Below, one piece after another: positions 36,080 to 53,402 of a stretch of 64,000 nt of DNA. The stretch comes from Candidatus Micrarchaeota archaeon (GTDB lineage: Archaea; Micrarchaeota; Micrarchaeia; Micrarchaeales; CABMGC01). Every line of letters starts with the position of its first letter. The first letter of the stretch is position 1. The translations under genes were made by a program, and so were the position numbers. The stretch is from NCBI GenBank assembly GCA_021852055.1, contig JAJZOD010000009.1, forward strand, positions 35,438 to 99,437, read 5' to 3'. The notes under the pieces are model-generated. The model was not told the origin of the DNA. It searched no databases and saw only the letters and a program-made list of their open reading frames with translations.

Positions 36080-36175
36080 TCACATATGCTTGGACTTAAT
36101 ACTACTTAAACATTACTAAACTTCGTGCAGTTTGCAGAAGATGCAGCCTGTGCTTATGCATCGTCTTTATCTTCC

Positions 36176-36472: not shown

Positions 36473-37001
36473 AAAACCACCGCAGTAAAAACTGCAGCTG
36501 TAATTGGATAAGAAGCTTTAAAAATAGTCCTGTTGCAAACAGAATAGTGGCATTCCCGTAATATTCAATGCAGCATCTTTTTAGCAAAGCACAGGCTCAG
36601 ATAGCATAATCAGAGTTTTCTGCGTGTTCAAGACAAAACTTGCATGTACATTTTTTGTCGTACTACGCATAAGTATTATAAATCTAATCGCACCAAACAA
36701 ACTCTTACAAGTGGTTATATGGCTAGATTAACTTTTCAGGCAAGTAAGGCTAGATGCAGTCAAAATGTCGGCCACCCGCATGCCGATATGCTGCCCGACT
36801 GGCAGCATCGAGAATTTTCACGGGTAGGAATAAATCTAAGGAATCCATCGGCTGTGTATACCCCTCCAACTAAGGAAATGCGAGATGAATTTATAAATTT
36901 AGATTTTTTTATGACATTAAAAAGAGGCAATAAAGATCCATAGTTTACATTCTGAGCTATTAGCAAGCAGGATAGCTCCGAAATTACAACGGCCGCATAT
37001 G

Positions 37002-38195
37002 TTACTTATATCTCAGAAGTGCTCCAAGGCCCGTGTAGCCCATTGTAAATTCCTTGCCATAAGAGCTCTCATCAGATACAAAGACTATCTCTGCTCCAGA
37101 CGCCTCCGCCAGCTCTACAAGCTCCTCAATCATATCCTTTTCTTCAACTACTTCAAGCCGTCCGCCGTCGCTATGTTTCTCCTGCCTCTGCCTCCCAGTC
37201 TCCAAGGCTTCAAATGTGCTGTTGCATGAGTTGCACTTATATTTAACCAGATGCAATTCAAGTTCATTGCTTATTATTAGCGTATCCACTTTTTTGGCTT
37301 CCAGAGCCTTCCGCGTCTCTTCATAACCATATACTGCAAGCCCCCTGCGCACGCGTTCCTGCATGAATCTCTCTATGACCTTATGCTCTTTTGCTGCTTC
37401 CTGCTCCTTAAGCAGTTCATCTGCTTTCTCAACTATTTCTTCCAAGCCGGTTTCATCTGTGTAACCTGTATCATAAGTGCCCAGTATTTTAATCTGGTAG
37501 TTGAGGGTATTGCCTTTTACAAAACCCTCCTTCGCCGGTCCAGGGCCTCCAACAATGACGCCCTTTATCTTGAACTCGTTCTTTGCAAATAGGCCATTTA
37601 CAACATCGCTTATGCGCACCGAGTACTCATGTATGCTTTCTTCACGTCCGCGCGCAAATCTCTGTGCCGATTGGCCGCCTTTTCTTACCTTTGCATGCGC
37701 CATGGAATTTAATCTTCTGACTATCTGTATGTGCGTCCCTTTCAATGTCGCAATTGTCGCTTCACGCCCATCCATAACCACGAGGCAGTACGTGTCCTTA
37801 TTGTCGAGTATCGCCTCAAGCGGTTCTAGAACAAATGTAGAATCACATCTGTATATGTTTACCCCCAACGGCTCCGGTGGTTCTATAGAAAATAGCTGAA
37901 TGTCAGACTTGCTCTGGTTGTTGGATATGTTGCCTGCAAAAACGGCAATGCCGTTCTTCGGCGTTGTCCTAAAAAGCCTAAGGTACTGTATTATCTTGTC
38001 TATGGCGCTCTGCACGTTCTGGCGCGTGCTCTTGCTTTTGATATTGCCTGATTGGCTGTGCTCATCGCGCAGCCTTGCTATCTCCGCATCAAGCGAAAAG
38101 CCTGTAGGTACGTAAATGCTGACAAGTTCTGTGCCGTAGCCTCTTATACTCTTCAGGCGTTTAACCTCGCGCAGCATTGCATAGTCGTTCTTCAT
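37002..38195 (-). CDS. prf1: peptide chain release factor aRF1
   Basis: NIKS motif (GNIKSKSTRQN) and GGQ motif (KGGQSAQRFAR). Confidence 0.95.
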   Translation of the reverse strand: MKNDYAMLREVKRLKSIRGYGTELVSIYVPTGFSLDAEIARLRDEHSQSGNIKSKSTRQNVQSAIDKIIQYLRLFRTTPKNGIAVFAGNISNNQSKSDIQLFSIEPPEPLGVNIYRCDSTFVLEPLEAILDNKDTYCLVVMDGREATIATLKGTHIQIVRRLNSMAHAKVRKGGQSAQRFARGREESIHEYSVRISDVVNGLFAKNEFKIKGVIVGGPGPAKEGFVKGNTLNYQIKILGTYDTGYTDETGLEEIVEKADELLKEQEAAKEHKVIERFMQERVRRGLAVYGYEETRKALEAKKVDTLIISNELELHLVKYKCNSCNSTFEALETGRQRQEKHSDGGRLEVVEEKDMIEELVELAEASGAEIVFVSDESSYGKEFTMGYTGLGALLRYK

Positions 38196-38330
38196 GTCAT
38201 CAATATATGCTACTTGTTTCTATATATACATTATTACTAAATTACTAAAAGGTCACGCATCTGCCTCGCTGCCTTGCGTTGTTCTGGCAGGCGTATTTTC
38301 TGTCAGATCCAAGTTTAATGTTTGCTATAT

Positions 38331-39629
38331 CTATTTTCTTATCTCAGTTTTTCCCATATACGGCACAAGAACATCCGGCACTGCCACAGTGCCTTTGTCT
38401 GTGACATAATTCTCCACTATGCACGCAATGGTCCTCTGTACGCTTATGCCTGTGCTGTTCAGAGTGTATACATATCTGCGCTCCCCTTTTTCGTCGTATT
38501 TTATATCAAGGCGCACGCTCTGCCATTCCCTTGCAGTTGAGCAGGATCCAAGTTCGCGGTAATCTCCTTGCCCAGGAAAATATGCTTCCCAGTCAACTGT
38601 CTTACTCATCTGGTGGCCAGTGTCTCCGCTGCTAAGCAGTACGAGCCTGTACGGTATATTGAGCTCCTGCATGAACTCCTCCGAGTTTGCAAGAATTTCG
38701 TCGAAATATTTCTGTTCATCCTCCCTTCTGCAATATACGAACTGCTCTATCTTGTTGAACTGATGCACGCGGAATATCCCTTTGGTGTCCTTGCCGTGTG
38801 AACCTGCTTCGCGCCTGAATGACGGGCTGAAGCCAACGTACTTCAAAGGGAGCTCGTTTCCTGAGAAGGTTTCTTCAGCATGCATTGCAGCAAGGCTATG
38901 CTCTGCTGTGCTTATCATAAACAGCTCCTCATCAACATGCTCAAAATTGTTCACGGCCTCGGCTTCGCGCGCCTCAGAAGTCCTGTAAAGTGCATCCTCG
39001 AATACGCCCAAAGGAGCCACCCCTTTGTAATATTTCTTCTTCAGCATATATGGCGGAGAGATGAGCGTATACCCCTTCTTGCACATCTTGTCAATTGCAT
39101 AGCGGATGACTGCCTGCTCCAGCAGTGCAAGGTCGCCGCGCAGGTAGAAAAATCTTGCACCTGCTGTTTTTGCTGCACGCTCTTCATCGAGCAGCCCCAG
39201 CTTTGTAAGTACATCCGCGTGGTTAGGTCCGTTTTTCTTTTTCACAGTGCCCCATGTCTTAATTACTTTGTTTGCTTCCGGAGGCATGCCTATTGGAACT
39301 GAACTGTCAAGCACGTTAGGCACATTCCATACCATTCCGTCTATTTTTGTTTCGTACGCTGTTATTTCTGCCTGCATGCCGTCTAGTTTCTTCTTAAGCT
39401 CTCCGAGCGCGGCTATCCTGCTCTTTACATCTAAGCCCTTTTTCTTGGCCTCGGATATTTCAATGCTTGACTTATTTCGCTGCGCCTGCAGTTCCTGAAT
39501 TTCTGTGCGCATAACGCGCCATTTTTCATCAAGCGATAAGAGCTCATCTATCGGAAAGTTGCTGTTCCTGTTTTTAAGCGTCTGGCGTATCTCGTCTATG
39601 TGGTCTCTTACATATTTAGTTGTAATCAT
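38331..39629 (-). CDS. serS: seryl-tRNA synthetase
   Basis: N-terminal coiled-coil arm plus class II motifs (FRREAGSHGKDTKGIFRVHQF, GSCSTAREWQ). First ATG at 39629; a TTG alternative lies at 39641. Confidence 0.9.
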   Translation of the reverse strand: MITTKYVRDHIDEIRQTLKNRNSNFPIDELLSLDEKWRVMRTEIQELQAQRNKSSIEISEAKKKGLDVKSRIAALGELKKKLDGMQAEITAYETKIDGMVWNVPNVLDSSVPIGMPPEANKVIKTWGTVKKKNGPNHADVLTKLGLLDEERAAKTAGARFFYLRGDLALLEQAVIRYAIDKMCKKGYTLISPPYMLKKKYYKGVAPLGVFEDALYRTSEAREAEAVNNFEHVDEELFMISTAEHSLAAMHAEETFSGNELPLKYVGFSPSFRREAGSHGKDTKGIFRVHQFNKIEQFVYCRREDEQKYFDEILANSEEFMQELNIPYRLVLLSSGDTGHQMSKTVDWEAYFPGQGDYRELGSCSTAREWQSVRLDIKYDEKGERRYVYTLNSTGISVQRTIACIVENYVTDKGTVAVPDVLVPYMGKTEIRK

Positions 39630-39693
39630 ATAAACCAACAATAATTATAGATGACATACGATTATAATACTTTACGACAAAGTTTAAAGTTAT

Positions 39694-39782
39694 GCAGGGG
39701 TGGCAGAGCTTGGCCAAATGCGACGGGCTTAGGACCCGTTCCCTTAGCGGGTGCGAGAGTTCAAATCTCTCCCCCTGCACCA
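39694..39782 (+). tRNA. tRNA-Leu (anticodon TAG), CCA encoded
   Basis: Acceptor GCAGGGG/CCCCTGC, anticodon arm ACGGG-CTTAGGA-CCCGT, long variable arm, T arm GAGAG-TTCAAAT-CTCTC, discriminator A and CCA. Its last 34 nt (39749-39782) are the repeat unit found three more times downstream. Confidence 0.9.
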
Positions 39783-39783
39783 T

Positions 39784-40560
39784 TTAGATTAATCCGGCAG
39801 CTCCAAAGCGCTCCATAAGATATCCTTTCACGTCCTTGTATCTGACAAATTCACTTTCTGGTAGCAGCCTCCCTAATTCCTTGTCCCATATAAGGCCCAA
39901 CTGTTTCATCCTGGCAAGCAATCTATCTTTTGTGAACGTATGGCCATATTCCTTCATCTTCTTGTCTATCATACTGACTTCAAAATCCACGCCGCTCTTT
40001 GCGAGAAAATAGATGTCATACAAATCTCTCGCCTTAACATTATGCCTGAAAAGCAGTGCAACAATTTTCTCGGATAGTATCTCCTCCCTGTTCATGACTA
40101 CCGCGACATACGGTTTTAAGTCCGGGTATGCAGGGTTTCTCCTAAATACCTCGGTTTTCTCAACGACAGAAGCCTTCTTGTCCACCTCTATCTTTAGGTG
40201 CTGGTATTTGTTCAGCATCTCAAATAATGGCCCTCTCACACTAAGCTCGTACACAAGCATATCGGCATTATTTTTCTTCCTCATAATCTTCAGCGGATAT
40301 TCCTTAGAAATCTTGTCTACGACATTGTCAAGCAATACGAGCAGCCTATTTCCGCCATCATCATGCACCAACGAGAAGTCGAGATCGTCGGAAAACCTTA
40401 TAGAGTTATAGAATTTTGAGAGTGCTGTCCCGCCCTTAAACACCAACTCTCCAGTTACAGCATATATCTCATCAAGAAATAGTTCTTCCACGTAGTCCTT
40501 CTCCTTCTGATACGGTTGCTCGTAAATGCCCATTTTCAGAAGTTCATCCTTTTCAATCAT
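39784..40560 (-). CDS. abiEii: AbiEii-type nucleotidyltransferase toxin (type IV TA / abortive infection)
   Basis: LVFKGGTALSKFYNSIRFSDDLDFS is the hallmark NTase motif of the AbiEii (DUF1814) family. It lies downstream of an AbiEi-like gene with a 4-nt gap. Confidence 0.75.
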   Translation of the reverse strand: MIEKDELLKMGIYEQPYQKEKDYVEELFLDEIYAVTGELVFKGGTALSKFYNSIRFSDDLDFSLVHDDGGNRLLVLLDNVVDKISKEYPLKIMRKKNNADMLVYELSVRGPLFEMLNKYQHLKIEVDKKASVVEKTEVFRRNPAYPDLKPYVAVVMNREEILSEKIVALLFRHNVKARDLYDIYFLAKSGVDFEVSMIDKKMKEYGHTFTKDRLLARMKQLGLIWDKELGRLLPESEFVRYKDVKGYLMERFGAAGLI

Positions 40561-40564
40561 ATAT

Positions 40565-41203
40565 TCACCTATCCCTTTGTGCTAAAGCGGACAGGCTTTT
40601 GGCCTGCGTTGCATATCCATATTCTCTCAGCAGCGCCGTGATTCCAACAAGCACCGATCTTTTCTTACTTTTCACTGCATAAGACACAAGTTTGTTTACG
40701 TCTATCCTGGCTGGCCTTTCGAGTGCCGCAGGGTCTAAGTCATTTACATCATCAAAATAATATATGTCTATCAGTGCCTTCTCCGGTTCTGCGATGAATA
40801 TGTTACCATCTGCTTCCTTTTTGTATCCGAACATCATGTCCTTTTTTATTTTTTTGAAAACAATGTCAAAACCCGCAACACCTTTAAGCCTATTGTGCCT
40901 TTTCGTGGAGACTACGTAGACGACTCTCGGTATCTGCGTAGTCAAGCCGTAATAGGCAAGTGCAGATACCATGCTAACATACGAAGGGCTCATCACATGC
41001 GACGCTATCTCATATTCGTTGTACCTCTCCTTTACATAGTATAAGCCCCTTTCAACCCTGCCGATGTACCCTTTCTTCACGCCTCTGTGAAGGAAAAGTA
41101 TAGAGTAAGTTCTGTTCTTGTGCAGTATCTTTATCGTGTCGTTTAAGGTAAATACAGGCATGTGCCTTTCAATCAGGAATCTTACAAAGTCCCTTGTTTG
41201 CAT
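40565..41203 (-). CDS. abiEi: AbiEi-type antitoxin/transcriptional regulator
   Basis: N-terminal wHTH-like region (VFTLNDTIKIL...GYIGRVERGLYYV), then PSYVSMVSALAYYGLTTQ, typical of AbiEi. Start refined to the ATG at 41203. Confidence 0.65.
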   Translation of the reverse strand: MQTRDFVRFLIERHMPVFTLNDTIKILHKNRTYSILFLHRGVKKGYIGRVERGLYYVKERYNEYEIASHVMSPSYVSMVSALAYYGLTTQIPRVVYVVSTKRHNRLKGVAGFDIVFKKIKKDMMFGYKKEADGNIFIAEPEKALIDIYYFDDVNDLDPAALERPARIDVNKLVSYAVKSKKRSVLVGITALLREYGYATQAKSLSALAQRDR

Positions 41204-41363
41204 GTTAGTAATTTGCACAAGAGGATATTTAAATATATGTGTTAAGTTAATTATCAAATGATAATCAATAGCACATTAATTAACAAGGGCTTCTCAGCTA
41301 GCTCAGAGCTCGTTGGAGTGTCCGGAAGCCCTCCGGAAGGAGAAGGGCCTGCTGCCTTAAGTC

Positions 41364-41391
41364 TGCGAGAGTTCAAATCTCTCCCCCTGCA
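41364..41391 (+). repeat. att-like copy 2: 28-nt core identical to tRNA-Leu 39752-39779
   Basis: TGCGAGAGTTCAAATCTCTCCCCCTGCA. Weaker similarity (CCTTA) extends to about 41355. Confidence 0.85.
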
Positions 41392-41584
41392 TATTCAATT
41401 TACGGCGACAAAGCAGGGTTCGAAAATCCGAAACGGAAATCTTCAAGAAGGGAAGATTTCAATAAGTCTTCCGATAACTTCTACATTACTATGCGGAAAG
41501 AGGAGCTATACAAAGAGACAGATAACGCCTTTAGCCTAGAGCAAGCTATAGACCTGAAAAGAACGTTAAGTCATTGAACACAAT

Positions 41585-41814
41585 CTAGTCTAGAAGCCGC
41601 TCAAATTCTTCGACTGTTAAGCCGACCTCCATTATTATTGCACGCAATGTGCCTCTTGGCACCTCTTTTCTATTCGGCACTACGGCTCTTCGGTGTGGAG
41701 GCTGCGTATTTCTGAGTATTATGTGGCTTCCCATTTGATGGTCGTATCTATATCCAATCTTGGATAGTGCCTTGACTACCTCTGCCGCTGATACTATATA
41801 AGAATCTTAGGCAT
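41585..41814 (-). pseudogene. hicA: hicA mRNA-interferase toxin gene disrupted by a 2-nt frameshift in a TATATA run
   Basis: The ATG at 41814 gives MPKILI then TAG (41796-41794). The next frame continues VSAAEVVKALSKIGYRYDHQMGSHIILRNTQPPHRRAVVPNRKEVPRGTLRAIIMEVGLTVEEFERLLD, a full HicA core with no start codon of its own. Confidence 0.65.
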
Positions 41815-41824
41815 TCACATTCAC

Positions 41825-42031
41825 CTATACGACTTCCTCTTTTATAGAAGGGGGTATCGGCTCGTTGTGCTTCTTGAGACTAGCCAGATAACCGGCTATA
41901 GCATCCTTGACGTTCTCTATAGCCTCTTTTCTAGTCTTGCCATCAGAAACGCATCTGGGCAACTGAGGTACGGTAGCTACAAATACGCCGTCTTCGTCCT
42001 GCTCTATTTCAACCCTGAAATATCTTCTCAT
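41825..42031 (-). CDS. hicB: HicB-like antitoxin (UPF0150-type, short form)
   Basis: FRVEIEQDEDGVFVATVPQLPRCVSDGKTRKEAIENVKDAIAGYL is the typical HicB N-domain pattern. It lies 10 nt upstream of the hicA ATG. Confidence 0.75.
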   Translation of the reverse strand: MRRYFRVEIEQDEDGVFVATVPQLPRCVSDGKTRKEAIENVKDAIAGYLASLKKHNEPIPPSIKEEVV

Positions 42032-42202
42032 GTCCGTTCATTGTATATTATACAACCCAAGCTATTTAAATTTAGGAAGTGTCCTGGCCCTAACTAAAGA
42101 CCTCCGGGCGACTAGAGACCCTATATCCCAAAAGGTCTTTAAGTAGCTCTGGGCAGGAAGCCCTAAGCCTGAAAGCAAGTTGACTAGAAATATCTAAGGC
42201 AC

Positions 42203-42715
42203 TTATTGCAGTTCATCGATATACCCCTCAAGTGTGTCTTTGTGCCCCCATCCCTCAGCTGCATGTTCTACAATCCAATTCAGCCGAGGCTCAAACTGTC
42301 CTTTTAACGAAGTATTACTTGGCTCATTGAGTAATCCTATAATCTCGTAAAACATATTTTCCATGCTTGTGTAAAATGCTTCATACAGGTCGCCGTACTT
42401 TTCGCCTAACCTAGTTCCTGTTTCAACGTAAAAAATCATTAGTTCTATGATATGCTTCTCATCTTTAGATATTTTTTTGAAGTTAGAGATAAGTTTTCTT
42501 GCTTCCTTCAAGTTTGGTCTTGCATCATTGAAAATACATGTCCTTATTTTCCCTTTGAAATATATCATTGCTTCTCCCTCTCCGTTTTCGCCTTCAAGCT
42601 TTAATAAGAGCCATTCAAGATTTTCCTTTCTTAAATCTGCAACATCAAGTAGGAGAGAAACCAATTTATCTTTCTCTAGACTTTTTAACTTTCTCCTAAG
42701 ATCCTCACCTTTCAT
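42203..42715 (-). CDS. all-helical 170-aa protein of unknown function (third gene of the operon)
   Basis: It resembles, from memory only, widespread uncharacterised DUF-type proteins (LKEARKLISNFKK...ELMIFYVETG...GDLYEAFYTSMENMF...GWGHKD). 11 nt downstream of the RelE-like gene. Confidence 0.45.
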   Translation of the reverse strand: MKGEDLRRKLKSLEKDKLVSLLLDVADLRKENLEWLLLKLEGENGEGEAMIYFKGKIRTCIFNDARPNLKEARKLISNFKKISKDEKHIIELMIFYVETGTRLGEKYGDLYEAFYTSMENMFYEIIGLLNEPSNTSLKGQFEPRLNWIVEHAAEGWGHKDTLEGYIDELQ

Positions 42716-42726
42716 CTTTTGAGCAC

Positions 42727-43125
42727 CTACCTTTTCTTGTAGCCGAATATTTTGTTGTATTCTTCATGGTCTATTATATCCAGCACGTCTAACCAAATTG
42801 AGAGTATCTCAACTTCTGTGTCCTCCCTCTGAGGCTGCTTTATTGTGTATATCATTCTCCAAGCACCAGAGAGGTTCACTTTCCAAAGGTTCGTAACATC
42901 ATATAGCGAGATGTATTTTTGAGCTACATTCTTCTTTGGTATGTGAATTCCGTAGTCATAATCCACTTTCAATATGGCTATCTTGTTATCTATTGATTTA
43001 AGGAGCGTCTCGTGGAACGAGTCAGTTATACTTTTTGATATATCCTCAGCAACTTTCTTTTTTAGGGCTAGGTAGGCGTCTTTTGCATCCCCTAAAAGCT
43101 TTACCGAAACGCGTTTCTCTACCAA
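42727..43125 (-). CDS. RelE/ParE-superfamily-like toxin with an N-terminal extension (tentative)
   Basis: The C-terminal pattern LWKVNLSGAWRMIYTIK...VEILSIWLDVLDIIDHEEYNKIFGY parallels the L.G..R.IY.I....V.I..I..H..Y core of RelE/ParE toxins. Confidence 0.45.
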   Translation of the reverse strand: MVEKRVSVKLLGDAKDAYLALKKKVAEDISKSITDSFHETLLKSIDNKIAILKVDYDYGIHIPKKNVAQKYISLYDVTNLWKVNLSGAWRMIYTIKQPQREDTEVEILSIWLDVLDIIDHEEYNKIFGYKKR

Positions 43126-43129
43126 AACA

Positions 43130-43396
43130 TCACACCGGTAAGCCTTCCTGCTCGGCCTTCTCTAGTTTCTTGCTGGGATTGAATGTCCAGATAAAGCCTT
43201 TCTTGGTTTCAAGAACCATGCCTCGCTTCTCCATGTAGTCAAGCGCAAGGTTCAAGGTAGAACGCATTACACCAGTCTGCAATCTAGCCAATATCTGGTT
43301 CCTGCTAACTGGGTTATTAGCCTTCTTGACTACTTCCTCTATTGCCAATATGGTCTTAAGCGTAGGATAGTGGACGATCTCTTTCTGTAGTTGCAT
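43130..43396 (-). CDS. small winged-helix DNA-binding protein (putative antitoxin/regulator)
   Basis: Start refined to the ATG at 43396 (MQLQKEIVHYPTLKTILAIEEVVKKANNPVSRNQILARLQTGVMRSTLNLALDYMEKRGMVLETKKG). 4 nt upstream of the RelE-like gene. Confidence 0.5.
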   Translation of the reverse strand: MQLQKEIVHYPTLKTILAIEEVVKKANNPVSRNQILARLQTGVMRSTLNLALDYMEKRGMVLETKKGFIWTFNPSKKLEKAEQEGLPV

Positions 43397-43564
43397 AATA
43401 TAACACCTAATAAGTATATACCCTAATAGATATATAAGTCTTTCTACACATTTAGAGGCTTCTCTACATGAACTTGGCAATCCATGTAGAGAAAAGTCCA
43501 AATAGAAATCCTCAAAATAGCTTTTCACTAGTGACTAATGCACATCAAGCTTGGGCTTAGAATC

Positions 43565-43674
43565 TTATGTTGTTTTTGGTGTGAAATATGGCTAGGAATA
43601 TAGGCGTGAAACAGCTAGGAAACGCTCTCAAACCCCTATCGGGTGCGAGAGTTCAAATCTCTCCCCCTGCACCA
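43565..43674 (+). repeat. 110-nt direct repeat (76-nt non-tRNA arm plus 34-nt att-like copy 3 at 43641-43674)
   Basis: 107/110 identical to 47598-47707. The last 34 nt are identical to tRNA-Leu 39749-39782. Confidence 0.9.
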
Positions 43675-43730
43675 ACTCAAAAGGTTCTTTTTGCAAAAGT
43701 ATTTATATATTAACATTTAGTTAATATATT

Positions 43731-44447
43731 ATGAAATTGACAACAAGGATAAAGGGATATATCGATTCAGCAAAGCTAACCTACTTCCCCCTCCTGGCTA
43801 GCCTTTCGTTAACTTCTGAGAACTCATTGCGGGTCACGCTTAACAGACTGGTCAAAGCCGGCGAAATATACAACCCGATTAAAGGCGCATATGTTTCAAA
43901 AAATGCAGATATGTTCTGGGTAGCATGCCAACTGCACGTAGGCTATATATCTCTCTCTACAGCTTTCTATCTCCACCACCTGATTGAAGAATTTCCGTTT
44001 ACGGTTTTTGTTGCGTCTAACGTTAGGAAATCCGTGCAGATGGGGAACCTCGAATTCATTTACTTCAAGGCACGTAATTATGCCGGTATCGAGAAAGGCG
44101 ATTACCCACTTGCTTCGGTTGAGAAAGCAATCAGCGATTCCTTAATGCACTTATCCTTAACGAATTTTACAATGCTTGCAAAGGTACTGTACTACGCAGA
44201 CATAGATTCTGGCAAGCTGATTCGGTTATGCGACGCAGAAAACTCCGCATCCTTTCAAAGGCTTGGATATCTGCTGTCCCTTCTTCCAAAACTTGATAAG
44301 GAAAAGTCAAAAATGCTCACATTCTGCAGGAAAAAGATAAAAGCAAACGCATATCTTAGCGGGAAACGCAGTGGCACATATATACCAGAATGGAAAATTA
44401 TAGATAACATAGGCAAAGAGGCGATTCTGTCATGGTGGCAACAATAG
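43731..44447 (+). CDS. abiEi: AbiEi-type antitoxin/regulator (second, divergent copy)
   Basis: SLRVTLNRLVKAGEIYNPIKGAYV wHTH-like region, then GYISLSTAFYLHHLIEE. Overlaps the downstream AbiEii gene by 16 nt. Confidence 0.6.
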   Translation: MKLTTRIKGYIDSAKLTYFPLLASLSLTSENSLRVTLNRLVKAGEIYNPIKGAYVSKNADMFWVACQLHVGYISLSTAFYLHHLIEEFPFTVFVASNVRKSVQMGNLEFIYFKARNYAGIEKGDYPLASVEKAISDSLMHLSLTNFTMLAKVLYYADIDSGKLIRLCDAENSASFQRLGYLLSLLPKLDKEKSKMLTFCRKKIKANAYLSGKRSGTYIPEWKIIDNIGKEAILSWWQQ

Positions 44448-45112
44448 CTTTTAAACTCGACGAGTTGCAGGATTACGCAGCAAGAGATGGACTAAGCTTG
44501 AATTTCGTGGTCAAGGAGGCCTTCCTTTTTGAGCTCATGGAATCCATGGGGACGGAAAAGTTCGTGCTGAAGGGCGGTACAGCCATAAATAAAGGCTATT
44601 TGGGTAGTCACCAGCGGTTTTCTGAGGATTTAGATTATGACACTGATCTAGATGAAGGCGATGCCAAAAAATATATCAAACAGATTGGATGGGAAATCAA
44701 GAAGGAATTTTTCACAAAACATTCGATTGGCTTCTCGATGGCGTATAAGTTTGACAGCATCAGAGACGTAGTCAGACTTGACATCTCATTTGGTATAAAA
44801 AACAAAATAGAAAAGAGGCGAGCAGCATCTGATTTTATACCAGTATCAAAAATAGCGCCAATGTACGGTTTCAGTGAACTCAACCACCAGAAGGAATCTG
44901 CATTTGAAGAAAGAAGGGAGTGGAAAGATATCTACGATTTATACTGGATGCATGAGTTGTATCCACATGAATTCAGGATAAAATATAAGACAAAGTTCGC
45001 GGAGGCGCTTTCAACTACAAACGTTCCGAAGATTGCAAATGCATACATACCTGCACAAAAAAGACCCAACTGGGACGAAGTTATCGAGAAGTTGAAGCAA
45101 GCGATCAAATAG
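44432..45112 (+). CDS. abiEii: AbiEii-type nucleotidyltransferase toxin (second, divergent copy)
   Basis: FVLKGGTAINKGYLGSHQRFSEDLDYD NTase motif. Confidence 0.75.
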   Translation: MVATIAFKLDELQDYAARDGLSLNFVVKEAFLFELMESMGTEKFVLKGGTAINKGYLGSHQRFSEDLDYDTDLDEGDAKKYIKQIGWEIKKEFFTKHSIGFSMAYKFDSIRDVVRLDISFGIKNKIEKRRAASDFIPVSKIAPMYGFSELNHQKESAFEERREWKDIYDLYWMHELYPHEFRIKYKTKFAEALSTTNVPKIANAYIPAQKRPNWDEVIEKLKQAIK

Positions 45113-45374
45113 CGCCAGAGCGAGAAAGAACAGATTCTTTCCTGTCGGATTCACTTATGGCATAACTTAGTCAAATGCGCAAGGTTTAAGACATTGAATC
45201 TTTGGCAGAGGAAGCCTAATCGCTATCCACGCAAAATCAGCCGCTGCTATGTTGCTAGCTTACAGCTCATTGGAGCGACCCATCTAAAGGTGATTTGCGT
45301 AGACTTTAGGTTCCGGGCAAAAAAAAACAAATATAAACTTTTGTATTGTATATAAACCTGATTCTTGTGGTGTC

Positions 45375-46598
45375 ATGGCAACTTCTAAGTCTATAGGTTG
45401 GATAATAGGAATTATAATAGTGGTGCTTGTAATTGCTGTTGCAATCAGCTCTCTGAGCAAGCCTAGCACTGCGCCAAGCACAAGCATAGCACAATCTCAA
45501 AACAGTACCACTACCATACGCGCATCACAGGTGCCATCACAGTTGTATGTCAGCACAGCAGGATCTGACTCAGCAAACGGCACACTCTCTGCCCCGCTTA
45601 AGACAATAAACCGGGCAATAGCGCTAGCTAGGCCAGGTCAGGTCATAATAGTGGCCCCCGGAACTTACAATGAGCAGATAAACATAACCTCCAGAGCTAT
45701 CATCGAAGGTGAAAATGCCAATACGACAATAATAAACGCCTCAGGTCAGATGAATGGCATAAACATTATCGGCCCTGGGGCTAATGGCACAGTGCTAAGT
45801 AATCTCACTGTAGAAAATGCGGATAACCACGGAATATACGCTCAGGATGTAGGCAACGTAAAGATCATAGATAACATAGTAAAGCACAATGGTGTCAATG
45901 CTACAGTATGTCCTCAGCCGCCGGCAAAGCCTGCAGGCCCGTGCATAATTGAGGACAAGCCAATAGAACTGATAGGAACAAACAATGTTACAGTTGAAAA
46001 TAATGTAGTCACAAACAACCTCGCCGATGGGGGTATAGGCATATCAGATCTCGGTACTATAAATCCTGGAAGTTTAGCGCAAACGCACATTTTTGCTAGT
46101 TCTAGAGGCAACAAGATAATAGGAAACAAGGTTATATACAACAAAGGTGGTTGCGGCATCGTAATTGCATCATATAACAAAGATGGTGTAATAAACAATT
46201 TGGTGGAGAACAATACTGTCGGTTTCAGTGTCGCTGGAATAGTAATAGGCGCCGGGGCACCAAACTCAACTGCTATGAACAATCTAGTTGTAAACAACAC
46301 GGCATTTAACAATTTCCTCCCAGGCATAATAGTGCATGCTACAACACCCGGCGACGTCCTATCTAATACTACTGTAGAATTCAACAGGGTTAGCGGCAAC
46401 GGCGCAGACGCAGAAGTAGGGGCGATGAATAAGACAGGGATAGTTGTTTCAGGAGATGTGATGCCGGTACTGAACGCCACAATAAAGGGCAACAACGTAA
46501 GCAACGAGTATTACGGGATATGGCTGAGGAATGCTCCAGGTGCAGCTATGCAGAACAATACCTTTGCGAATGTTACTGTAGAAAATTATACAAAGTGA
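45375..46598 (+). CDS. N-terminally anchored, secreted right-handed parallel beta-helix repeat protein
   Basis: TM/signal anchor SIGWIIGIIIVVLVIAVAI, Ser/Thr linker, then repeated (I/V)xNNx(I/V)xxN(x)GI beta-helix rungs (ENADNHGIYA, IIDNIVKHNG, VENNVVTNNLADGGIGI, IIGNKVIYNKGGCGIVI). Confidence 0.7.
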   Translation: MATSKSIGWIIGIIIVVLVIAVAISSLSKPSTAPSTSIAQSQNSTTTIRASQVPSQLYVSTAGSDSANGTLSAPLKTINRAIALARPGQVIIVAPGTYNEQINITSRAIIEGENANTTIINASGQMNGINIIGPGANGTVLSNLTVENADNHGIYAQDVGNVKIIDNIVKHNGVNATVCPQPPAKPAGPCIIEDKPIELIGTNNVTVENNVVTNNLADGGIGISDLGTINPGSLAQTHIFASSRGNKIIGNKVIYNKGGCGIVIASYNKDGVINNLVENNTVGFSVAGIVIGAGAPNSTAMNNLVVNNTAFNNFLPGIIVHATTPGDVLSNTTVEFNRVSGNGADAEVGAMNKTGIVVSGDVMPVLNATIKGNNVSNEYYGIWLRNAPGAAMQNNTFANVTVENYTK

Positions 46599-46622
46599 TT
46601 GTTGCCGCACACAGTGGCTTTC

Positions 46623-47486
46623 ATGTCCAAAGAGCGAGGTTTTCCAAAACATCCCGGTAGCTCTCTGTCGAGCGTAGCCAAAATAGAATCCCCTCAACAT
46701 ATAGGAGCAGAACAGGGCAGTTTCCCTGCTTATACGCACCGCCTCTTATTACAGAGCTTCCTGCTTGGGCTTGTACCTCCTATTGTTCTGTTAGCTGCAA
46801 TCATCCTAAAAAGCCTAACTCTACTGACCTACACGCATGTCATGTCGGCAGTGATGTGGACTGGTTTTGACCTCTTCATGGCCCTAATACTCGGGCGGGT
46901 GCTCAGGTCGCTTGACATAGCGGGCAGGGTAGAAGTGGCCAAAAGGCTCACTCCATCTACCTTCTTCATATTGCCTTCCCTTGCCGCAACTACCATAACT
47001 GCGGGCATATATCTCGCAATGTCACTTGGAGTTTTTAATCTTTCGTACCTCTGGATAGTGGCTGCATTGTTAATAGTCACCATATTGACTGTCCAGGGCT
47101 TCGTCATTCTCATGCCGAACAGTATGAGAATCTTCATAGAGCTAGCTAAGCCGGATCCTAGCAAAGAGAGGATAGCGAAGCTCAACGGCATAAACATAAG
47201 GCTTGCTGGTGTCCAGGGGGTATTCCAGATTGTGATAATCTTCATAATGGTGAACATCTCCAATCTTCCTGGCGCCGCAGCGCAACTGAACCTTCCAATG
47301 ATCTTCTACTCTCTCATCGCTTTCGCTGCGCTGTTCTTGGGCGTGTACTTATTCATATATCGCGGCGCGCTGGCGGACTATAAGCGGGGTGAGCTGAACG
47401 AAAAGGCAATCAGCACGCTCAGGTTTGGATTATACGGCCATATAATCATATTTCTTATATTGGGGCTTACATTACTGTTCGCATAA
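46623..47486 (+). CDS. polytopic membrane protein, function unknown
   Basis: About 7 hydrophobic helices. Start uncertain (TTG at 46599 directly after the upstream stop, first ATG at 46623). Confidence 0.4.
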   Translation: MSKERGFPKHPGSSLSSVAKIESPQHIGAEQGSFPAYTHRLLLQSFLLGLVPPIVLLAAIILKSLTLLTYTHVMSAVMWTGFDLFMALILGRVLRSLDIAGRVEVAKRLTPSTFFILPSLAATTITAGIYLAMSLGVFNLSYLWIVAALLIVTILTVQGFVILMPNSMRIFIELAKPDPSKERIAKLNGINIRLAGVQGVFQIVIIFIMVNISNLPGAAAQLNLPMIFYSLIAFAALFLGVYLFIYRGALADYKRGELNEKAISTLRFGLYGHIIIFLILGLTLLFA

Positions 47487-47597
47487 CCTTATGCGAGGTT
47501 CAAGGTTCAGATCTGCCTGAAATCTGAACGCTAGCTGCTTATATACCCTGCTCGGCCATTGTTCATGGTTCAGATGAACCTGCTTTGGTTTAAGATT

Positions 47598-47707
47598 TTA
47601 TGTTGTTTTTGGTGTGAAATATGGCTAGGAATATCGGCGTGATACAGCTAGGAAACACTCTCAAACCCCTATCGGGTGCGAGAGTTCAAATCTCTCCCCC
47701 TGCACCA
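47598..47707 (+). repeat. 110-nt direct repeat (arm plus att-like copy 4 at 47674-47707)
   Basis: See 43565-43674. It is followed by TTTA, as is the tRNA-proximal copy. Confidence 0.9.
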
Positions 47708-47814
47708 TTTAAACTCTCTCCGTGCTCTAATAAGCAAAAGCTTTAAAGCTGTCATTGAATTATTGAATGAAAGGACTGTGGCAAGTCTCGTATCCGCTTT
47801 ATGCAATAATGCAG

Positions 47815-49071
47815 CTATTTATTTTCAAGCCTGAGAACCTTCCTCACTTTTTGTATGGCTACTATAGCTGTGTCTATGTCCTCCTTCCTCGTGTACAAAT
47901 AAAAGCTCATCCTGGCTACTGAAGGTTCGCCAATTATCTCGTTTACCAAAGGCATTGCGCAGTGGTGTCCTGCGCGTATGGCTACGCCTTCGCTGTTGAA
48001 TATCTCAGCAACATCATGCGAATGTGCTCCCTTGATGTTGAATGATATCACACCTGCCCTATTGTTCTCGTCAATGTCTTTTCTCCGTATGCCATAAGTT
48101 ATGACTCCCTGCTCCTCCTCCAAAAGTTTCAGGGCATACCTCGTCATGTCAATCTCATGCTTTCTTATATTTTTGACCCCGATTCTATTGATATATTCAA
48201 CAGCTGTACCAAGGCCTATCCCGCCTTCTACATTTGATGTGCCGGCTTCGAACTTCCAGGGAAGTTCGTTCCATGTGCAGCCATCGAACTTTACGCTGCG
48301 TATCATATCCCCTCCGCCATATATTGGTTCCATTTGCTCGAGAAGCTCTTCTTTACCGTATAGCACGCCAATACCTGCAGGACCAAGCATTTTGTGAGAA
48401 GAGAATGCCATAAAATCGCATCCTATGCTTTTAACGTCGACTTGCATATGCGGCACAGATTGGGCTGCATCAACAACAACAACTGCTCCAGTGTCATGGG
48501 CCATCTTAGTCAGCTTTCGAACATCATTTATGGTTCCGAGGACGTTTGAAACATGCGTGAAGGCTACAAGCTTTGGATGTTTCTCAAGCCTTTTTTTATA
48601 ATCTTCCAGATTTAAAGTGGCCTGATCTGCAAGTTTTATGTATTCTACCTTTGCGCCCTTTCTTTTTGCAAGCATCTGCCACGGCACTATATTGCTGTGG
48701 TGTTCCATCTGTGTTATAAGCACAGTGTCTCCCTTGGAAATATTACGCTCAGCCCAAGACAGACCTACTAAGTTTATTGACTCTGTGGTGTTCCTTGTGT
48801 ATATAACTTCATTGTATGATGGTGCGTTTATCAACTTTGCAACTAACTCCTTGGATCTTATGTATGCATCCGTAGCCTTCGCTGATATATCATAAAGGCC
48901 CCGGTGTATGTTTGCATTATATGTCCTGTAATAATCAGATACTGCATTTATCACACTTTCAGGTTTCTGTGATGTAGCGGCGCTGTCCAGATACACGAGT
49001 CGCTTCCCTCCTCTTGTAGTTGTCGACAAGATAAGAAAGTCTTTTATTATGCTTTCCACGTCCAGTGCCAT
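47815..49071 (-). CDS. sufS: cysteine desulfurase SufS (class V aminotransferase)
   Basis: LVYLDSAATSQKP, SSHKMLGPAGIGVLY (PLP lysine), RAGHHCAMPL (active-site Cys loop). Start placed at MALDVESIIKDF; the longest ORF start at 49170 would overlap the upstream small ORF. Confidence 0.85.
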   Translation of the reverse strand: MALDVESIIKDFLILSTTTRGGKRLVYLDSAATSQKPESVINAVSDYYRTYNANIHRGLYDISAKATDAYIRSKELVAKLINAPSYNEVIYTRNTTESINLVGLSWAERNISKGDTVLITQMEHHSNIVPWQMLAKRKGAKVEYIKLADQATLNLEDYKKRLEKHPKLVAFTHVSNVLGTINDVRKLTKMAHDTGAVVVVDAAQSVPHMQVDVKSIGCDFMAFSSHKMLGPAGIGVLYGKEELLEQMEPIYGGGDMIRSVKFDGCTWNELPWKFEAGTSNVEGGIGLGTAVEYINRIGVKNIRKHEIDMTRYALKLLEEEQGVITYGIRRKDIDENNRAGVISFNIKGAHSHDVAEIFNSEGVAIRAGHHCAMPLVNEIIGEPSVARMSFYLYTRKEDIDTAIVAIQKVRKVLRLENK

Positions 49072-49078
49072 ACCTCCA

Positions 49079-49306
49079 CTACCAAACATTTTTGAACTCT
49101 TTGAATTTCCGTTTCTGCTTCGGAGCACGTTTGTAGGTTTTTTTGGCATCTTTGTTAATGTCATTGTCAATACTGCTTACTTTCTTTACGGTGCTCTTCT
49201 GTTGCCCTATGGCAATTTTATGCTGGTCCATAGCCTTCTTTTTTTCTATGGCAAAAAGACGCCTCCCCTCCTTTTCCCAGATTCTCTTAAATTCCTTATT
49301 CTGCAT
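49079..49306 (-). CDS. small Lys-rich hypothetical protein between sufC and sufS
   Basis: 75-aa ORF that fits the gap exactly. No recognisable motif. It could be non-coding. Confidence 0.25.
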   Translation of the reverse strand: MQNKEFKRIWEKEGRRLFAIEKKKAMDQHKIAIGQQKSTVKKVSSIDNDINKDAKKTYKRAPKQKRKFKEFKNVW

Positions 49307-49340
49307 TTTTCACACCGTAATTATATGGGCGCACTGCCTA

Positions 49341-50066
49341 TTATACGTTATACCCGCTCTCCTCAACTTCGCGTATGAGCTCTTTGCCTCCTTCCTTCAC
49401 AATTTTCCCGTCTTTCATTACATGAATAAACTCTGGTTGCATGTAATTAAGTATCCTGCTGTAGTGTGTTATCACAATCAGGCCCATATTCATATCCTGC
49501 CTCATGGATTCGACATTTTTTGCAACTATGCGTATTGCATCTACATCGAGTCCAGAGTCAGGCTCGTCGAGTATGGCTATCTTCGGCTTAAGGACACGCA
49601 TCTGTAGTATCTCAACCTTTTTCTTCTCTCCTCCAGAAAATCCATGATTCAGGGACCTCCCTATCAGCTCATCTTTCAGCTCTAATGCTGCCGAAGTGCT
49701 CTTTACTTCGCTCATGAACTCCTTAAACTGTAGTGGCTTGTTGGTTATTGCACCTCTTGCAGTATTAAGAAAGTTAAGCAGTCCAAGACCTTCTATCTCT
49801 ATCGGGTTCTGAAACTGCAAAAACAGCCCCAGCTTCGCACGCTCATTAACCTTCATGCCGACTATGCTCTTGTTGTCTAAAAGTATATCTCCTGATGTTA
49901 TTTTAAGCTGCGGATGCCCCATTATTGCCTTGGCTAGGGTTGTCTTGCCTGATCCGTTGGGACCCATTATTACGTGAAGCTCACCCTCATTTATGACCAA
50001 GTCCACGCCGTTTACAACCTCTTTGTCGTCAATAGACACATGCAGATTTTTTATCTCAAGTTTCAT
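49341..50066 (-). CDS. sufC: Fe-S cluster assembly ATPase SufC
   Basis: Walker A GPNGSGKTTL, ABC signature FSGGEKKK, Walker B ILDEPDSGLD. Confidence 0.9.
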   Translation of the reverse strand: MKLEIKNLHVSIDDKEVVNGVDLVINEGELHVIMGPNGSGKTTLAKAIMGHPQLKITSGDILLDNKSIVGMKVNERAKLGLFLQFQNPIEIEGLGLLNFLNTARGAITNKPLQFKEFMSEVKSTSAALELKDELIGRSLNHGFSGGEKKKVEILQMRVLKPKIAILDEPDSGLDVDAIRIVAKNVESMRQDMNMGLIVITHYSRILNYMQPEFIHVMKDGKIVKEGGKELIREVEESGYNV

Positions 50067-50070
50067 GGCC

Positions 50071-51327
50071 TCACTTATTTGCAGTTGATGTCATCCATAT
50101 GCCTTTCGGAGTTACTGTATTTATGACTCCAAAGTCATCGTTTTCTATTCTACTTAGTATAACTGATGATGCAATCTCCTTTGCCGAAGGATTCTGTATA
50201 TTTGACAGATATCTTGTTATGAACGAAGCAACAAACATCTTGCGTGCCTGTGTTTCTGGTATGCCTCTGGATTCCATATAAAACAGTGCCTCTTTGTCTA
50301 TAGGAGATGTAGCCGCACTATGTGTTGCAGATACCTCATTGCTGTAATCTATTGACATGTCCGGCAGAGCATCTACATGCGCCTTGTCGTTTAGTACTAT
50401 GCCCCTTTGGTTTACCCTGGAAAATGCCCCTCTGGTGAGCCTTTCAACCTTTGCATAGCCTTTCAGAAGGCAGTACGAACCGCCGTCAAGAATTGCACCG
50501 GTTTCAAGCCGTGTATAACTACGTTCCTTTGAATTAATCACATACGTGTTTATGTCAAACTTCTGTTCCCTTGTGCCATAAATCGTTTCTGCTGCATTTA
50601 TTCTGCTTGACTTGCCTTGTGTGTCAAAAAAACCAACGCTTTTGGTAATGCCAGAGCCGTTATAAATGAAATTCAGGTTTATCTCAGAATTCTCTTCAAT
50701 TATGCCTTTTGAGAGATTAAGCAGCTGCGATTGCGCATTGCCGTCATTAAGCATTGTAAACTCCATTTTTGAATCCTTATGTACTGAAAATTCCTGAAGC
50801 GGAGAAACAAGCGCACCTGTCCCTGGGAGCGAAGCATAAAGCTCAAATACATCCAAAAATGCGCCTTCGCCTATGTCAAAAAACACCTGAAATACTAAAT
50901 TATCCTCATTTATTACCATAATGGAAAGTTTCTTTGAAGTTTTCTTCTCAATCTTTACAAAAACGACGTCTCGAGAATTGGCATTAACATACGCCACAAG
51001 TTTGTTGTCAGTGTTCTTGAATATCTTCCCTCTAAGCTCACTTTCAGAGAGGGAATCCATGCGTTTTATGCTGACTATGCCGGAGCTGTTCCTAACGAAT
51101 GAATTAGAGATCACAACATCAAACTTCTTGTTAGTCCTCTCTTCAATGTAATTTGCATATGCCTCCACTTCTTTGCGCCTCCCGGAGCTCCTTGCTGCAT
51201 CAAGATCGGTTTCGCTAGGAAGGTGTACCTCTACAAAATATTTCTTGTAAAGATCATTTAGTTCGTACGGAAGCGTATCGTACTGCTGCAATGCATCCCT
51301 TCTAAATTCATCGTATGCTTCTGACAA
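50071..51327 (-). CDS. sufD: Fe-S cluster assembly protein SufD (SufB/D family)
   Basis: The C-terminal beta-helix region with HSAATSPIDKEALFYMESRGIPETQARKMFV is typical of the SufB/SufD family. It lacks the SufB N-terminal region. Confidence 0.75.
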   Translation of the reverse strand: MSEAYDEFRRDALQQYDTLPYELNDLYKKYFVEVHLPSETDLDAARSSGRRKEVEAYANYIEERTNKKFDVVISNSFVRNSSGIVSIKRMDSLSESELRGKIFKNTDNKLVAYVNANSRDVVFVKIEKKTSKKLSIMVINEDNLVFQVFFDIGEGAFLDVFELYASLPGTGALVSPLQEFSVHKDSKMEFTMLNDGNAQSQLLNLSKGIIEENSEINLNFIYNGSGITKSVGFFDTQGKSSRINAAETIYGTREQKFDINTYVINSKERSYTRLETGAILDGGSYCLLKGYAKVERLTRGAFSRVNQRGIVLNDKAHVDALPDMSIDYSNEVSATHSAATSPIDKEALFYMESRGIPETQARKMFVASFITRYLSNIQNPSAKEIASSVILSRIENDDFGVINTVTPKGIWMTSTANK

Positions 51328-51346
51328 AAAATTACCACTGGTGCGA

Positions 51347-52753: not shown

Positions 52754-52761
52754 AAAAATCA

Positions 52762-53398: not shown

Positions 53399-53402
53399 AA
53401 AC

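Follow-up and report, generated by a model that had tools for sequence, protein, structure and literature searches.

The DNA studied here is a window of 64,000 nucleotides (nt), a term used below for the whole stretch that was analysed, from a Candidatus Micrarchaeota archaeon, a member of the DPANN archaea. It contains a tRNA-Leu(TAG) gene that forms a divergent pair with serS, and this serS-tRNA-Leu pair is kept throughout the phylum. Downstream of the tRNA an interval of 8 kb extends to sufS. This interval is the subject of our analysis; it consists of segments (E1, E2, E3a and E3b) that carry mostly toxin-antitoxin and abortive-infection (Abi) genes and are delimited by copies of the 3' part of the tRNA, referred to as attachment (att) copies c1 to c4. 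The features are listed in Table 1. Loci and contigs used for comparison are cited by L numbers and open reading frames (ORFs) by P numbers.

The 34-nt 3' segment of the tRNA gene occurs in three exact copies on the + strand, which start at 39749, 43641 and 47674; no match to this repeat arose by chance in 100 shuffles. An exact 28-nt core of the repeat (41364-41391) is found in copy c2, in the same orientation as the other copies. The start-to-start spacings are 1612, 2280 and 4033 nt and all copies sit within 8 kb downstream of the tRNA. Since the 64-kb window contains no further copy of the 34-nt unit, the unit is not a dispersed repeat within the window. Copies c3 and c4 each terminate a longer, 126-nt repeat with 94% identity (43549-43674 versus 47582-47707), and a fifth, truncated tRNA fragment is located at about 45168-45192. 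Copy c2 aligns contiguously with the tRNA 3' part and the adjoining left arm in L025, L028, L012, L042 and L043. A reading of c2 as a complete pseudo-tRNA, or as a tRNA with an intron, was abandoned; c2 has no acceptor 5' strand, and ARAGORN and Rfam are both silent on it. An Rfam scan of the window at a permissive threshold resulted in no RNA family besides tRNA. An earlier note, made from the sequence alone, had given the same four repeat positions and had interpreted them as att sites left by site-specific integration into the 3' part of the tRNA; the positions are exact, and the interpretation agrees with the intact elements with matching arms that we found at the same tRNA in other Micrarchaeota (see below).

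None of the segments contains an intact integrase gene. The earlier note had seen no recognisable integrase at all, and this holds for a complete gene; what it overlooked is a relic in E2 and two putative start-codon stubs in the right arms. The relic was matched by tblastn at 41467-41571 (E 1e-5) and is up to 77% identical to the C-termini of members of a tyrosine recombinase family. A profile of 120 integrases, when compared with the six-frame translation of the window, gave a single match, in the frame 41302-41574 (E 1.3e-7). The complete in-frame relic spans 41302-41577 and consists of the left arm fused to the last ~30 integrase codons. In intact relatives this left-arm stretch is the 5' coding region of the integrase, from the core to a 'VSWHQ' motif. 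Locus L042 represents the undeleted state, with the order tRNA-Leu, left arm, int, hicA and hicB; the order int-hicA-hicB is thus common to L042 and E2, and window positions 41495-42077 match L042 1482-2062 at 94.5%. Because L042 shows the undeleted order, ~710 nt of the integrase (codons 1 to ~229) were deleted in E2. An integrase gene next to an att site is therefore represented in the window only by a 3' relic of ~30 codons, whereas such a gene is present in L012, L025, L028, L042, L043 and L050.

The intact proteins of this family are tyrosine recombinases of 256-260 amino acids (aa), which match Pfam Phage_integrase at 2e-10. In three distant Micrarchaeota, with seryl-tRNA synthetases (SerRS) that are 54-63% identical, the gene lies directly after tRNA-Leu and a left arm of ~100 nt. 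P0020, P0027, P0062 and the integrase of L028 matched only PF00589 in a search with E values up to 10; PF16795 was not among their matches. The catalytic box II reads RLTTHS(L/P)RHY, i.e. HxxR, and not the R...KxxR...Y signature of suicidal integrases. XerA is the closest curated model, though with 43.3 bits the protein is far below the NCBIfam equivalog cut-off of 220, and PDB entry 4a8e was matched only with E 0.003. On the features tested, we rejected a placement of the integrase among those of SSV-type, XerA or integrons. The family has more than 560 members, and those with a named source all come from metagenome-assembled genomes (MAGs) of Micrarchaeota. A scan of viral contigs with the integrase found no relatives, a comparison with 50,697 phage records gave no BLAST similarity, and a plasmid collection contained no useful relatives. 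A 364-aa ORF of L003 was also considered as an integrase and discarded, with only a faint hint of a transposase domain.

Intact elements of this family are only 1.8-1.9 kb long and consist of the tRNA 3' part, a left arm, the tyrosine recombinase, one toxin-antitoxin pair, a right arm and a core. The element in L028 (1.93 kb) combines the integrase with a ParE toxin and a 77-aa partner, that in L043 (1.84 kb) with DUF4258 and DUF2283 proteins as a pair; at the end of both elements stands a conserved right arm (95-200 nt), and behind it a second core. In L025, L012 and L042 an intact integrase stands beside the tRNA, and the right ends of these elements were not found. The intact elements occupy the same tRNA in species with ~54-63% SerRS identity, and their arms are 83-95% identical to those of the window. 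Decay of the integrase is also seen elsewhere: a second integrase of L043 is cut after 72 codons and L046 has a frameshifted copy. The 'lost recombinase' of the earlier note can thus be identified as this family, which is intact at the same tRNA in other Micrarchaeota and has left a 3' remnant inside the second segment.

Table 1. Features of the interval between tRNA-Leu(TAG) and sufS (window coordinates).
Feature	Position	Strand	Evidence or remark
tRNA-Leu(TAG), intact	39694-39782	+	ARAGORN; Rfam tRNA 54.9 bits; sole tRNA call at the locus
att copy c1: last 34 nt of the tRNA, encoded CCA included	39749-39782	+	exact-repeat search
Segment E1: AbiEii (39784-40560) and AbiEi (40565-41257), type IV toxin-antitoxin pair	39783-41339	-	Pfam AbiEii 2.6e-26, AbiEi_4 5.8e-7; NCBIfam TAA_AbiEi
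att copy c2: diverged tRNA-Leu 3' part with exact 28-nt core	41340-41391	+	repeat family D1; belongs to left end of E2
Left arm (P') of E2	41392-41494	+	84-89% identical to left arms of L012, L025, L028, L042, L043
Tyrosine recombinase 3' remnant, catalytic-Tyr codon to stop, in frame with left arm	41495-41577	+	tblastn, profile search
hicA pseudogene (41585-41814) and intact hicB (41825-42031)	41585-42031	-	Pfam HicA_toxin 2e-14, HicB_lk_antitox 1.7e-9
E2 cargo: DUF6155 (42203-42715); 132-aa RelE/ParE-fold protein (42727-43125); winged helix-turn-helix (wHTH) protein (43130-43396/43528)	42203-43528	-	Pfam; modelled fold
CTCTACATG/CATGTAGAG inverted repeats	43450-43503		inverted repeat I4, within E2 cargo
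Right arm (P) of E2, truncated proximal part	43549-43640	+	aligns with right arms of L001, L028, L034, L040, L051
Putative integrase start codon in E2 right arm, MARNIGVKQLGNALKPLSG...	43588	+	P0020 ORF starts at equivalent ATG
att copy c3, exact 34 nt	43641-43674	+	exact-repeat search
Segment E3a: AbiE cassette with own promoter block; AbiEi-like (43731-44447), AbiEii (44432-45112); ends in tRNA fragment (~45168-45192)	43675-45192	+	
Segment E3b cargo: secreted right-handed beta-helix protein (45375-46598); membrane protein (46623-47486)	45193-47504	+	Pfam Beta_helix/DUF1565/NosD; NCBIfam
22-nt palindromic/direct repeats of E3b right arm	47498-47519, 47561-47582	+	
Full-length right arm (P) of E3b	47505-47673	+	repeat family D9; alignments with L028, L001, L034, L040
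TATA-like TTATATA in E3b right arm	47539-47545	+	
GGTG in E3b right arm	47611-47614	+	
Putative integrase start codon in E3b right arm	47621	+	
att copy c4, exact 34 nt	47674-47707	+	followed by flank toward sufS
sufS	47815-49170	-	reached by the flank past c4

The cargo of the segments is dominated by modules of the toxin-antitoxin and Abi type, to judge from the matches in Pfam and NCBIfam and the fold comparison. In E1 the stop codon of the AbiEii gene falls 1 nt past the tRNA, and an E1-like module is located left of a right arm and core in L051. The hicA gene of E2 has a 2-nt insertion after codon 5, which results in a stop after 6 codons when aligned with the intact hicA of L042; of the HicAB pair only hicB is intact here. 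This pseudogene is a correction to the gene content given in the earlier note, in which two AbiEi/AbiEii pairs, hicB, the wHTH protein and a RelE-like protein were rightly recognised. The 132-aa protein of E2 has no sequence-family match. Its AlphaFold2 model (predicted local distance difference test score 75.5) found ParE/HigB toxins as top Foldseek matches (5ceg_B with E 3.7e-3; 6af4; 5jaa) at template modelling (TM) scores of 0.5-0.68. Together with the wHTH gene it forms a pair that is 88% identical at the DNA level to a pair in L025, which there adjoins an intact integrase. In E3a the second AbiEii was matched by Pfam (1.1e-14); the second AbiEi has no Pfam match, and its homologues are named AbiEi by NCBI. 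Judged from their sequences, both pairs belong to AbiE, with an AbiEi wHTH antitoxin adjacent to an AbiEii nucleotidyltransferase. A metagenome scan with AbiEi gave only one locus, 33% identical, and was uninformative. The two genes of E3b, for the beta-helix and the membrane protein, are not toxin-antitoxin genes; a block of 56 nt in front of them (45227-45281) matches L051 1735-1790, downstream of an integrase, at 84% (blastn). Segment 3 is composite, made of the AbiE cassette E3a and the remnant E3b, and the array therefore comprises at least four remnants; the three stacked islands proposed earlier had the correct spacings and too low a count.

The 8-kb interval is very probably a tandem array of at least four decayed integrative elements, which entered the 3' part of tRNA-Leu(TAG) successively by site-specific recombination; this explanation includes the split integrase gene that is discussed below. 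The recombinase would be the Micrarchaeota-specific tyrosine integrase, acting at the tRNA-Leu 3' part. At each insertion the tRNA would be rebuilt from the core copy of the element and the older 3' part moved downstream, a process that would produce a ladder of direct repeats with the newest element presumably on the left. In E2 the integrase was lost through the ~710-nt deletion, which left the left arm fused in frame to the last ~30 codons. E3b, and probably E1, would have lost the entire left end, and E3a would be a small AbiE cassette of a kind never seen with its own integrase. The cargo may have been retained since toxin-antitoxin/Abi modules are addictive, protective, or both.

Several observations weigh against this explanation. 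The composition of the array deviates only slightly: its GC content is 0.427 compared with 0.435 for the window (standard deviation 0.020 over 1.5-kb windows), with 0.421, 0.405, 0.409 and 0.454 for the individual segments. Clearly low values (0.38-0.40) occur only at 42.0-44.0 kb, which is the part for which the AT-richness noted earlier by eye is correct. No contig of this species was found to carry an intact integrase of the family, so any integrase activity here is historical. Neither an empty site, in which the tRNA is joined directly to the sufS flank, nor a circular junction was seen in this species. Furthermore, neither arms nor a trace of an integrase were found in E1 and E3a; that they too are decayed integrase-bearing elements is what we infer, and they may instead have been mobilised in trans.

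An encoded CCA is present in three of the four core copies of the window (39780-39782, 43672-43674 and 47705-47707). It is absent from most of the Micrarchaeota tRNA-Leu genes examined (loci L010-L030) and from the same-species contig L007. Because these genes lack it, the CCA of the functional tRNA-Leu in the window probably derives from an element.

The tRNA fragments could alternatively have arisen by local duplication of the 3' end, with ordinary chromosomal genes between them, so that the interval would be ancestral, non-mobile DNA. A GC content near the genome average and the presence of E1 in most strains fit this idea, but the comparison of strains, i.e. contigs with SerRS or SufC identical to those of the window, makes it highly improbable. 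Strains with identical flanking genes differ in content, and the breaks occur at cores or arms: relative to the window, L034 departs at 47505, the distal edge of the right arm, L040 at 43549, L003 at 41400, and L039 at 43645, inside copy c3. In place of the E3b cargo L034 has other genes (GHKL ATPase, DUF4258), and L007 has a different sequence directly after the tRNA and no segment E1. The flank past c4 is identical in every strain contig that carries sufS. E1 is present in L001-L005 with 80-95% identity, while the flank 36000-39750 is ~100% identical between strains. The locus thus has the properties of an island, namely direct repeats of the tRNA 3' end that bound inserted DNA with the intact tRNA at one end, and variable content among close relatives with breakpoints at att sites (L034, L039, L040, L003 and L007).

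More distant species lead to the same result. In 18 of 22 related species the DNA at hand (up to 10 kb) has one tRNA copy and no element, which is not expected of ancestral DNA. Modules of the window recur, 87-94% identical in DNA, in species whose SerRS is ~54% identical or, in L042, beside a different flanking gene: the E2 cargo is 88% identical to L025, hicAB 94.5% to L042 and the AbiE cassette 87% to L029. These identities, taken at the DNA level, appear to show horizontal transfer of cargo between Micrarchaeota species. The integrase relic and the conserved arms likewise do not fit ancestral DNA, and the alignment of relatives that the earlier note had proposed as a check counts against it, with content that differs between strains and is common to distant species. 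The role of sufS as a core neighbour of the site could not be upheld. No related species examined has sufS within 10 kb of tRNA-Leu, and hence no empty serS-tRNA-sufS site could be found.

It is also extremely unlikely that the array is a chimera of metagenome assembly joined at short repeats. Such an artefact might explain why several short contigs end within the tRNA (39718/39719) and why L001 and L002 connect the array to other genes. However, the array was recovered from tRNA-Leu to sufS in three independent assemblies at 99.9-100% identity and in a fourth (L036) at 97.7%, and a fifth covers 40389-55346. L032 and L033 run from serS through sufS, L036 and L037 reach tRNA-Leu or E1, and L035 stops in E1. 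The five assemblies come from different samples and pipelines (NCBI MAG, JGI and ENA), and their agreement indicates that the array is not an assembly artefact. Moreover, the k141 in the contig names implies a final assembly k-mer that exceeds the repeats (34-126 nt) in length.

A further candidate for the mobilising enzyme is found 5.7 kb away, where an IS110-type gene (53403-54380) and a TnpB gene (54647-55888) are located. Mobilisation by these insertion sequence (IS) transposases in place of a tyrosine recombinase could be suspected from the 87 nt upstream of the IS110 start, which share 89% identity with the sequence immediately before the right-arm start codon of L043. The right arms of the window, however, resemble the IS110 5' region only in the GGTG...ATG ribosome-binding context, and a homology between the two within the window was discarded for this reason. 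The segment boundaries are tRNA cores with arms of a tyrosine recombinase gene, and no IS ends flank them, which leaves this mechanism with very little probability.

An alternative that partly overlaps with the array of decayed elements is an active cassette platform, an archaeal counterpart of integron arrays, pdif modules or cis-mobilizable elements (CIMEs), and not a mere graveyard. An integrase provided in trans would cut out integrase-free modules, each with a promoter, a toxin-antitoxin pair and one tRNA-derived core, as circles and would insert them again at any core. The AbiE cassette speaks for such a platform. This cassette, with an identical 40-nt promoter block, was found in five contexts, and in four of them (the window, L029, L046 and L050) a tRNA-Leu core or relic lies to the left and a core or tRNA fragment to the right. 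Window positions 43640-45128 are 87% identical to the 1.6-kb cassette of L029, which sits between the tRNA and a 65-nt tRNA fragment; the window retains the first ~20 nt of that fragment. In L046 and L050 the cassette is bordered by tRNA-Leu cores. The ~0.75-kb vapBC cassettes without integrase that tRNA-Leu and a further core enclose in L012 and L046, the fact that c1, c3 and c4 are still identical across 34 nt, and the restoration of a complete integrase gene at a tandem junction (L051) also argue for an active platform. On the other hand, the right junction varies: in L050 and L046 the core follows 3-20 nt past the stop, whereas L029 and the window have a spacer of 75-90 nt and then the 65-nt fragment. 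Such variation would be expected from idiosyncratic deletions more than from the exact excision of a cassette. In L047 the cassette adjoins tRNA-Glu without a repeat; circles, empty sites or an integrase were not seen in this species; and the histories that can be read (E2, L043 and L046) are histories of integrase decay. We consider an active platform possible but rather unlikely, and the successive entry and decay of integrative elements remains the preferred explanation.

The integrase gene itself most likely spans the attachment site of the free element (attP). Its promoter and first 19 codons would lie in the right arm, codons 20-28 in the tRNA-like core and the remainder in the left arm. 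Integration would then part the catalytic portion from the promoter and start codon, and excision would need an intact gene, from another element or from a junction between tandem elements. The following data speak for this arrangement. First, no stop codon interrupts the reading frame between core and integrase, a distance of 150 or 147 nt, in any of the seven integrase-linked tRNA-Leu copies; by chance this is expected for 6-10% per copy. A relative at tRNA-Glu, 57% identical, keeps the same frame with respect to the T-arm open as well. Second, most left arms contain no in-frame start codon. Third, a tandem junction in L051 brings right arm, core and left arm together and generates a 316-aa ORF, P0020, which runs from the right-arm ATG and starts MARNIGVKQPGNTLKPLAGSRVQISPPA; P0355 looks like a second full-length form of the integrase. 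Fourth, the alignments of distant homologues begin at residue ~42, which is upstream of the internal Met and within the left-arm region. The right arms of the window encode the N-terminal peptide of P0020 from the ATGs at 43588 and 47621; GGTG precedes both, and TTATATA is present in the full-length arm as well. The stretches with these ATGs are probable Int(N) stubs with promoter and start codon, to judge from their sequence. An attP inside the integrase ORF, so that integration splits the gene ('suicidal' type), is accordingly probable.

The split gene also faces objections. In the left arms 89 synonymous and 262 non-synonymous codon differences were counted, compared with 42 and 57 synonymous ones in the other two frames. 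This is modest support, so the case rests on the conserved frame, the missing internal starts, the full-length ORF and the homologue alignments. Once the element is integrated, translation could begin at an internal GTG/ATG ('VSM'). No more than one or two ORFs of the attP form were found, one of them at a tandem junction and not in a free circle, and in the right arms of L001 and L043 the start is lost or a stop codon is present.

Archaeal elements with suicidal integrases of the SSV1 type (type I) are known from the SSV1, pTN3 and pT26-2 families (PMC8371274, PMC7253208), and a domain, Phage_integr_3 (PF16795), marks membership of this single suicidal superfamily (PMC8371274). The elements described here resemble them in that attP is apparently enclosed by the integrase ORF, integration is directed at a tRNA 3' part, an Int(N) stub would be left at one end and Int(C) at the other after integration, excision should need an intact gene from another copy, and related elements accumulate at one site. 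They differ in having PF00589 and not PF16795, HxxR and not KxxR, and no similarity to phage records. In addition, the host is a DPANN archaeon and not a hyperthermophile, only 28 codons lie upstream of the core end, and the elements are 1.8-1.9 kb long with a toxin-antitoxin pair as sole cargo.

The array can also be compared with the CIMEs of Streptococcus and the tandem accretion of integrative and conjugative or integrative and mobilizable elements (Pavlovic et al. 2004, reviewed in PMC5704250). Here as there, integration genes are lost while attL and attR are kept, and a new element enters the same 3' gene end to give a tandem array; E2 is an example, in which c2 with the left arm and the right arm with c3 are preserved and the integrase is deleted. 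By analogy, mobilisation in cis or trans may be possible. Unlike the array, CIMEs are bacterial and driven by conjugation; the array has no transfer genes, and its units are ten times smaller. The cryptic elements of Thaumarchaeota and other archaeal integrated elements, which are defined by their integrase, measure 2.6-98 kb (PMC6563490, PMC8371274). They too prefer tRNA targets, carry toxin-antitoxin or defence cargo, form tandem arrays by re-use of the site and can lose the integrase, but the remnants in the window are only 1.5-2.5 kb long and have no integrase, and their intact relatives (1.8-1.9 kb) are below the smallest size reported (2.6 kb). Integron arrays and pdif (XerC/D) modules are likewise composed of small modules, often toxin-antitoxin pairs, between short sites of a tyrosine recombinase. 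Their sites are attC hairpins or dif, however, and not tRNA fragments; in the array the modules carry a conserved promoter block with a TATA element, the integrase is inside the array as part of an element, and the junctions are uneven. An integron in the strict sense, with IntI by attI and promoterless cassettes ending in attC, is not what the array contains. With respect to cargo, the two AbiEi/AbiEii pairs, hicB with hicA and the wHTH gene with the RelE/ParE-fold gene follow the usual two-gene order of AbiE, HicAB and RelE/ParE systems, except that hicA is frameshifted and that the 132-aa protein is assigned from a moderate match of its predicted fold.

Repeated use of one tRNA site in tandem, integrase loss once an element has integrated, and integrase-free remnants between att sites (CIMEs) have already been described (PMC6563490, PMC8371274, PMC5704250); the array in the window is a clear archaeal example of this known kind of island. 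In the searchable literature we found no description of this element family or of Micrarchaeota elements, of their size of 1.8-1.9 kb, or of a self-splitting integrase outside the SSV type. What is new here is probably the arrangement of the integrase.

The genomes of DPANN archaea are smaller than 1 Mb, and these archaea are assumed to lose DNA that they do not need. The strain nevertheless spends 8 kb, about 1% of a relative-sized genome, on a hypervariable stack of predicted addiction and anti-phage genes, which provides a readable history of accretion, integrase loss and cargo exchange and shows that modules move between Micrarchaeota species. Self-disrupting integrases are currently seen as one lineage, known for the most part from hyperthermophilic archaea. 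Tentatively, and with slightly less than even chances, we propose that the present family is a second, independently evolved self-splitting lineage (PF00589/Xer-like) on the smallest integrative elements yet seen (~1.9 kb, integrase plus one toxin-antitoxin pair), and that tandem accretion at tRNA-Leu rebuilds integrase genes at the junctions, giving a self-renewing platform that shuffles integrase-free toxin-antitoxin/Abi cassettes among DPANN archaea. If this is true, the gene-splitting habit, so far described only for an unrelated integrase family, extends to this one; its second origin in an unrelated tyrosine recombinase would mark it as a recurrent solution, and a system of only 1.9 kb would be available for studying how self-splitting elements escape.

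A number of minor observations concern the locus and its relatives. The short assemblies that end within the tRNA (L006, L008 and L009) break ~25 nt into it. In L001 a second sequence (1087-1112) is identical to the 5' 26 nt of tRNA-Leu, and a further tRNA-Leu that shares this 5' half seems to exist in the genome. When the AbiE pair of E1 (39750-41290) is compared with L001, L002 and L003, identity breaks inside abiEii (about 40000-40250) and not at the att site, a pattern that would suggest either homologous recombination with replacement of alleles or diversifying selection. Past E1, L001 (1-8344) continues with a cold-shock protein and a cluster of ribosomal proteins and L002 (1-8334) with a 1486-aa surface protein and a CDC48-like ATPase, in neither case with sufS; at the array the genome may have been rearranged or may have received a large alternative insertion.

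The vapBC (PIN) cassettes without integrase in L012 (1501-2386) and L046 (4078-4947) stand upstream of an integrase-bearing element or remnant, which is the same stacking pattern as in the window. In L047-L049 (4819-6385) the AbiE cassette directly follows tRNA-Glu(TTC), among core genes and without a repeat. The 57%-identical integrase of the same family in L052 (7935-8900) lies at tRNA-Glu(CTC), and its ORF runs through the T-arm; evidently the family has switched tRNA targets.

The IS110 transposase gene near the array is split into a part of 120 aa with the DEDD domain (53403-53765) and a part of 169 aa with the Transposase_20 domain (53871-54380), and is followed by the IS605 OrfB/TnpB gene; this region is among the two of lowest GC content in the window (0.39). 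In the strain contig L036 the IS110 ORF appears unsplit (>271 aa). The stretch with 89% identity between the window (53320-53406) and L043 (9577-9663) takes the place of the distal right arm before the putative integrase start in L043, and looks like a hybrid of an IS110 5' end and an element arm.

Finally, the paired 22-nt repeats and the palindromes of the right arm are, from their sequence, candidate protein-binding sites. The motifs CTCTACATG and CATGTAGAG(A)AA occur in 2 to 5 copies in elements of this family at tRNA-Leu or tRNA-Glu, at 43450-43503 in the window, L051 1470-1640, L052 9560-9700 and L043 ~9520-9575. L051 and L052 have in common a non-coding block of ~160 nt that is made of these motifs, which could be operator sites or iteron-like repeats.

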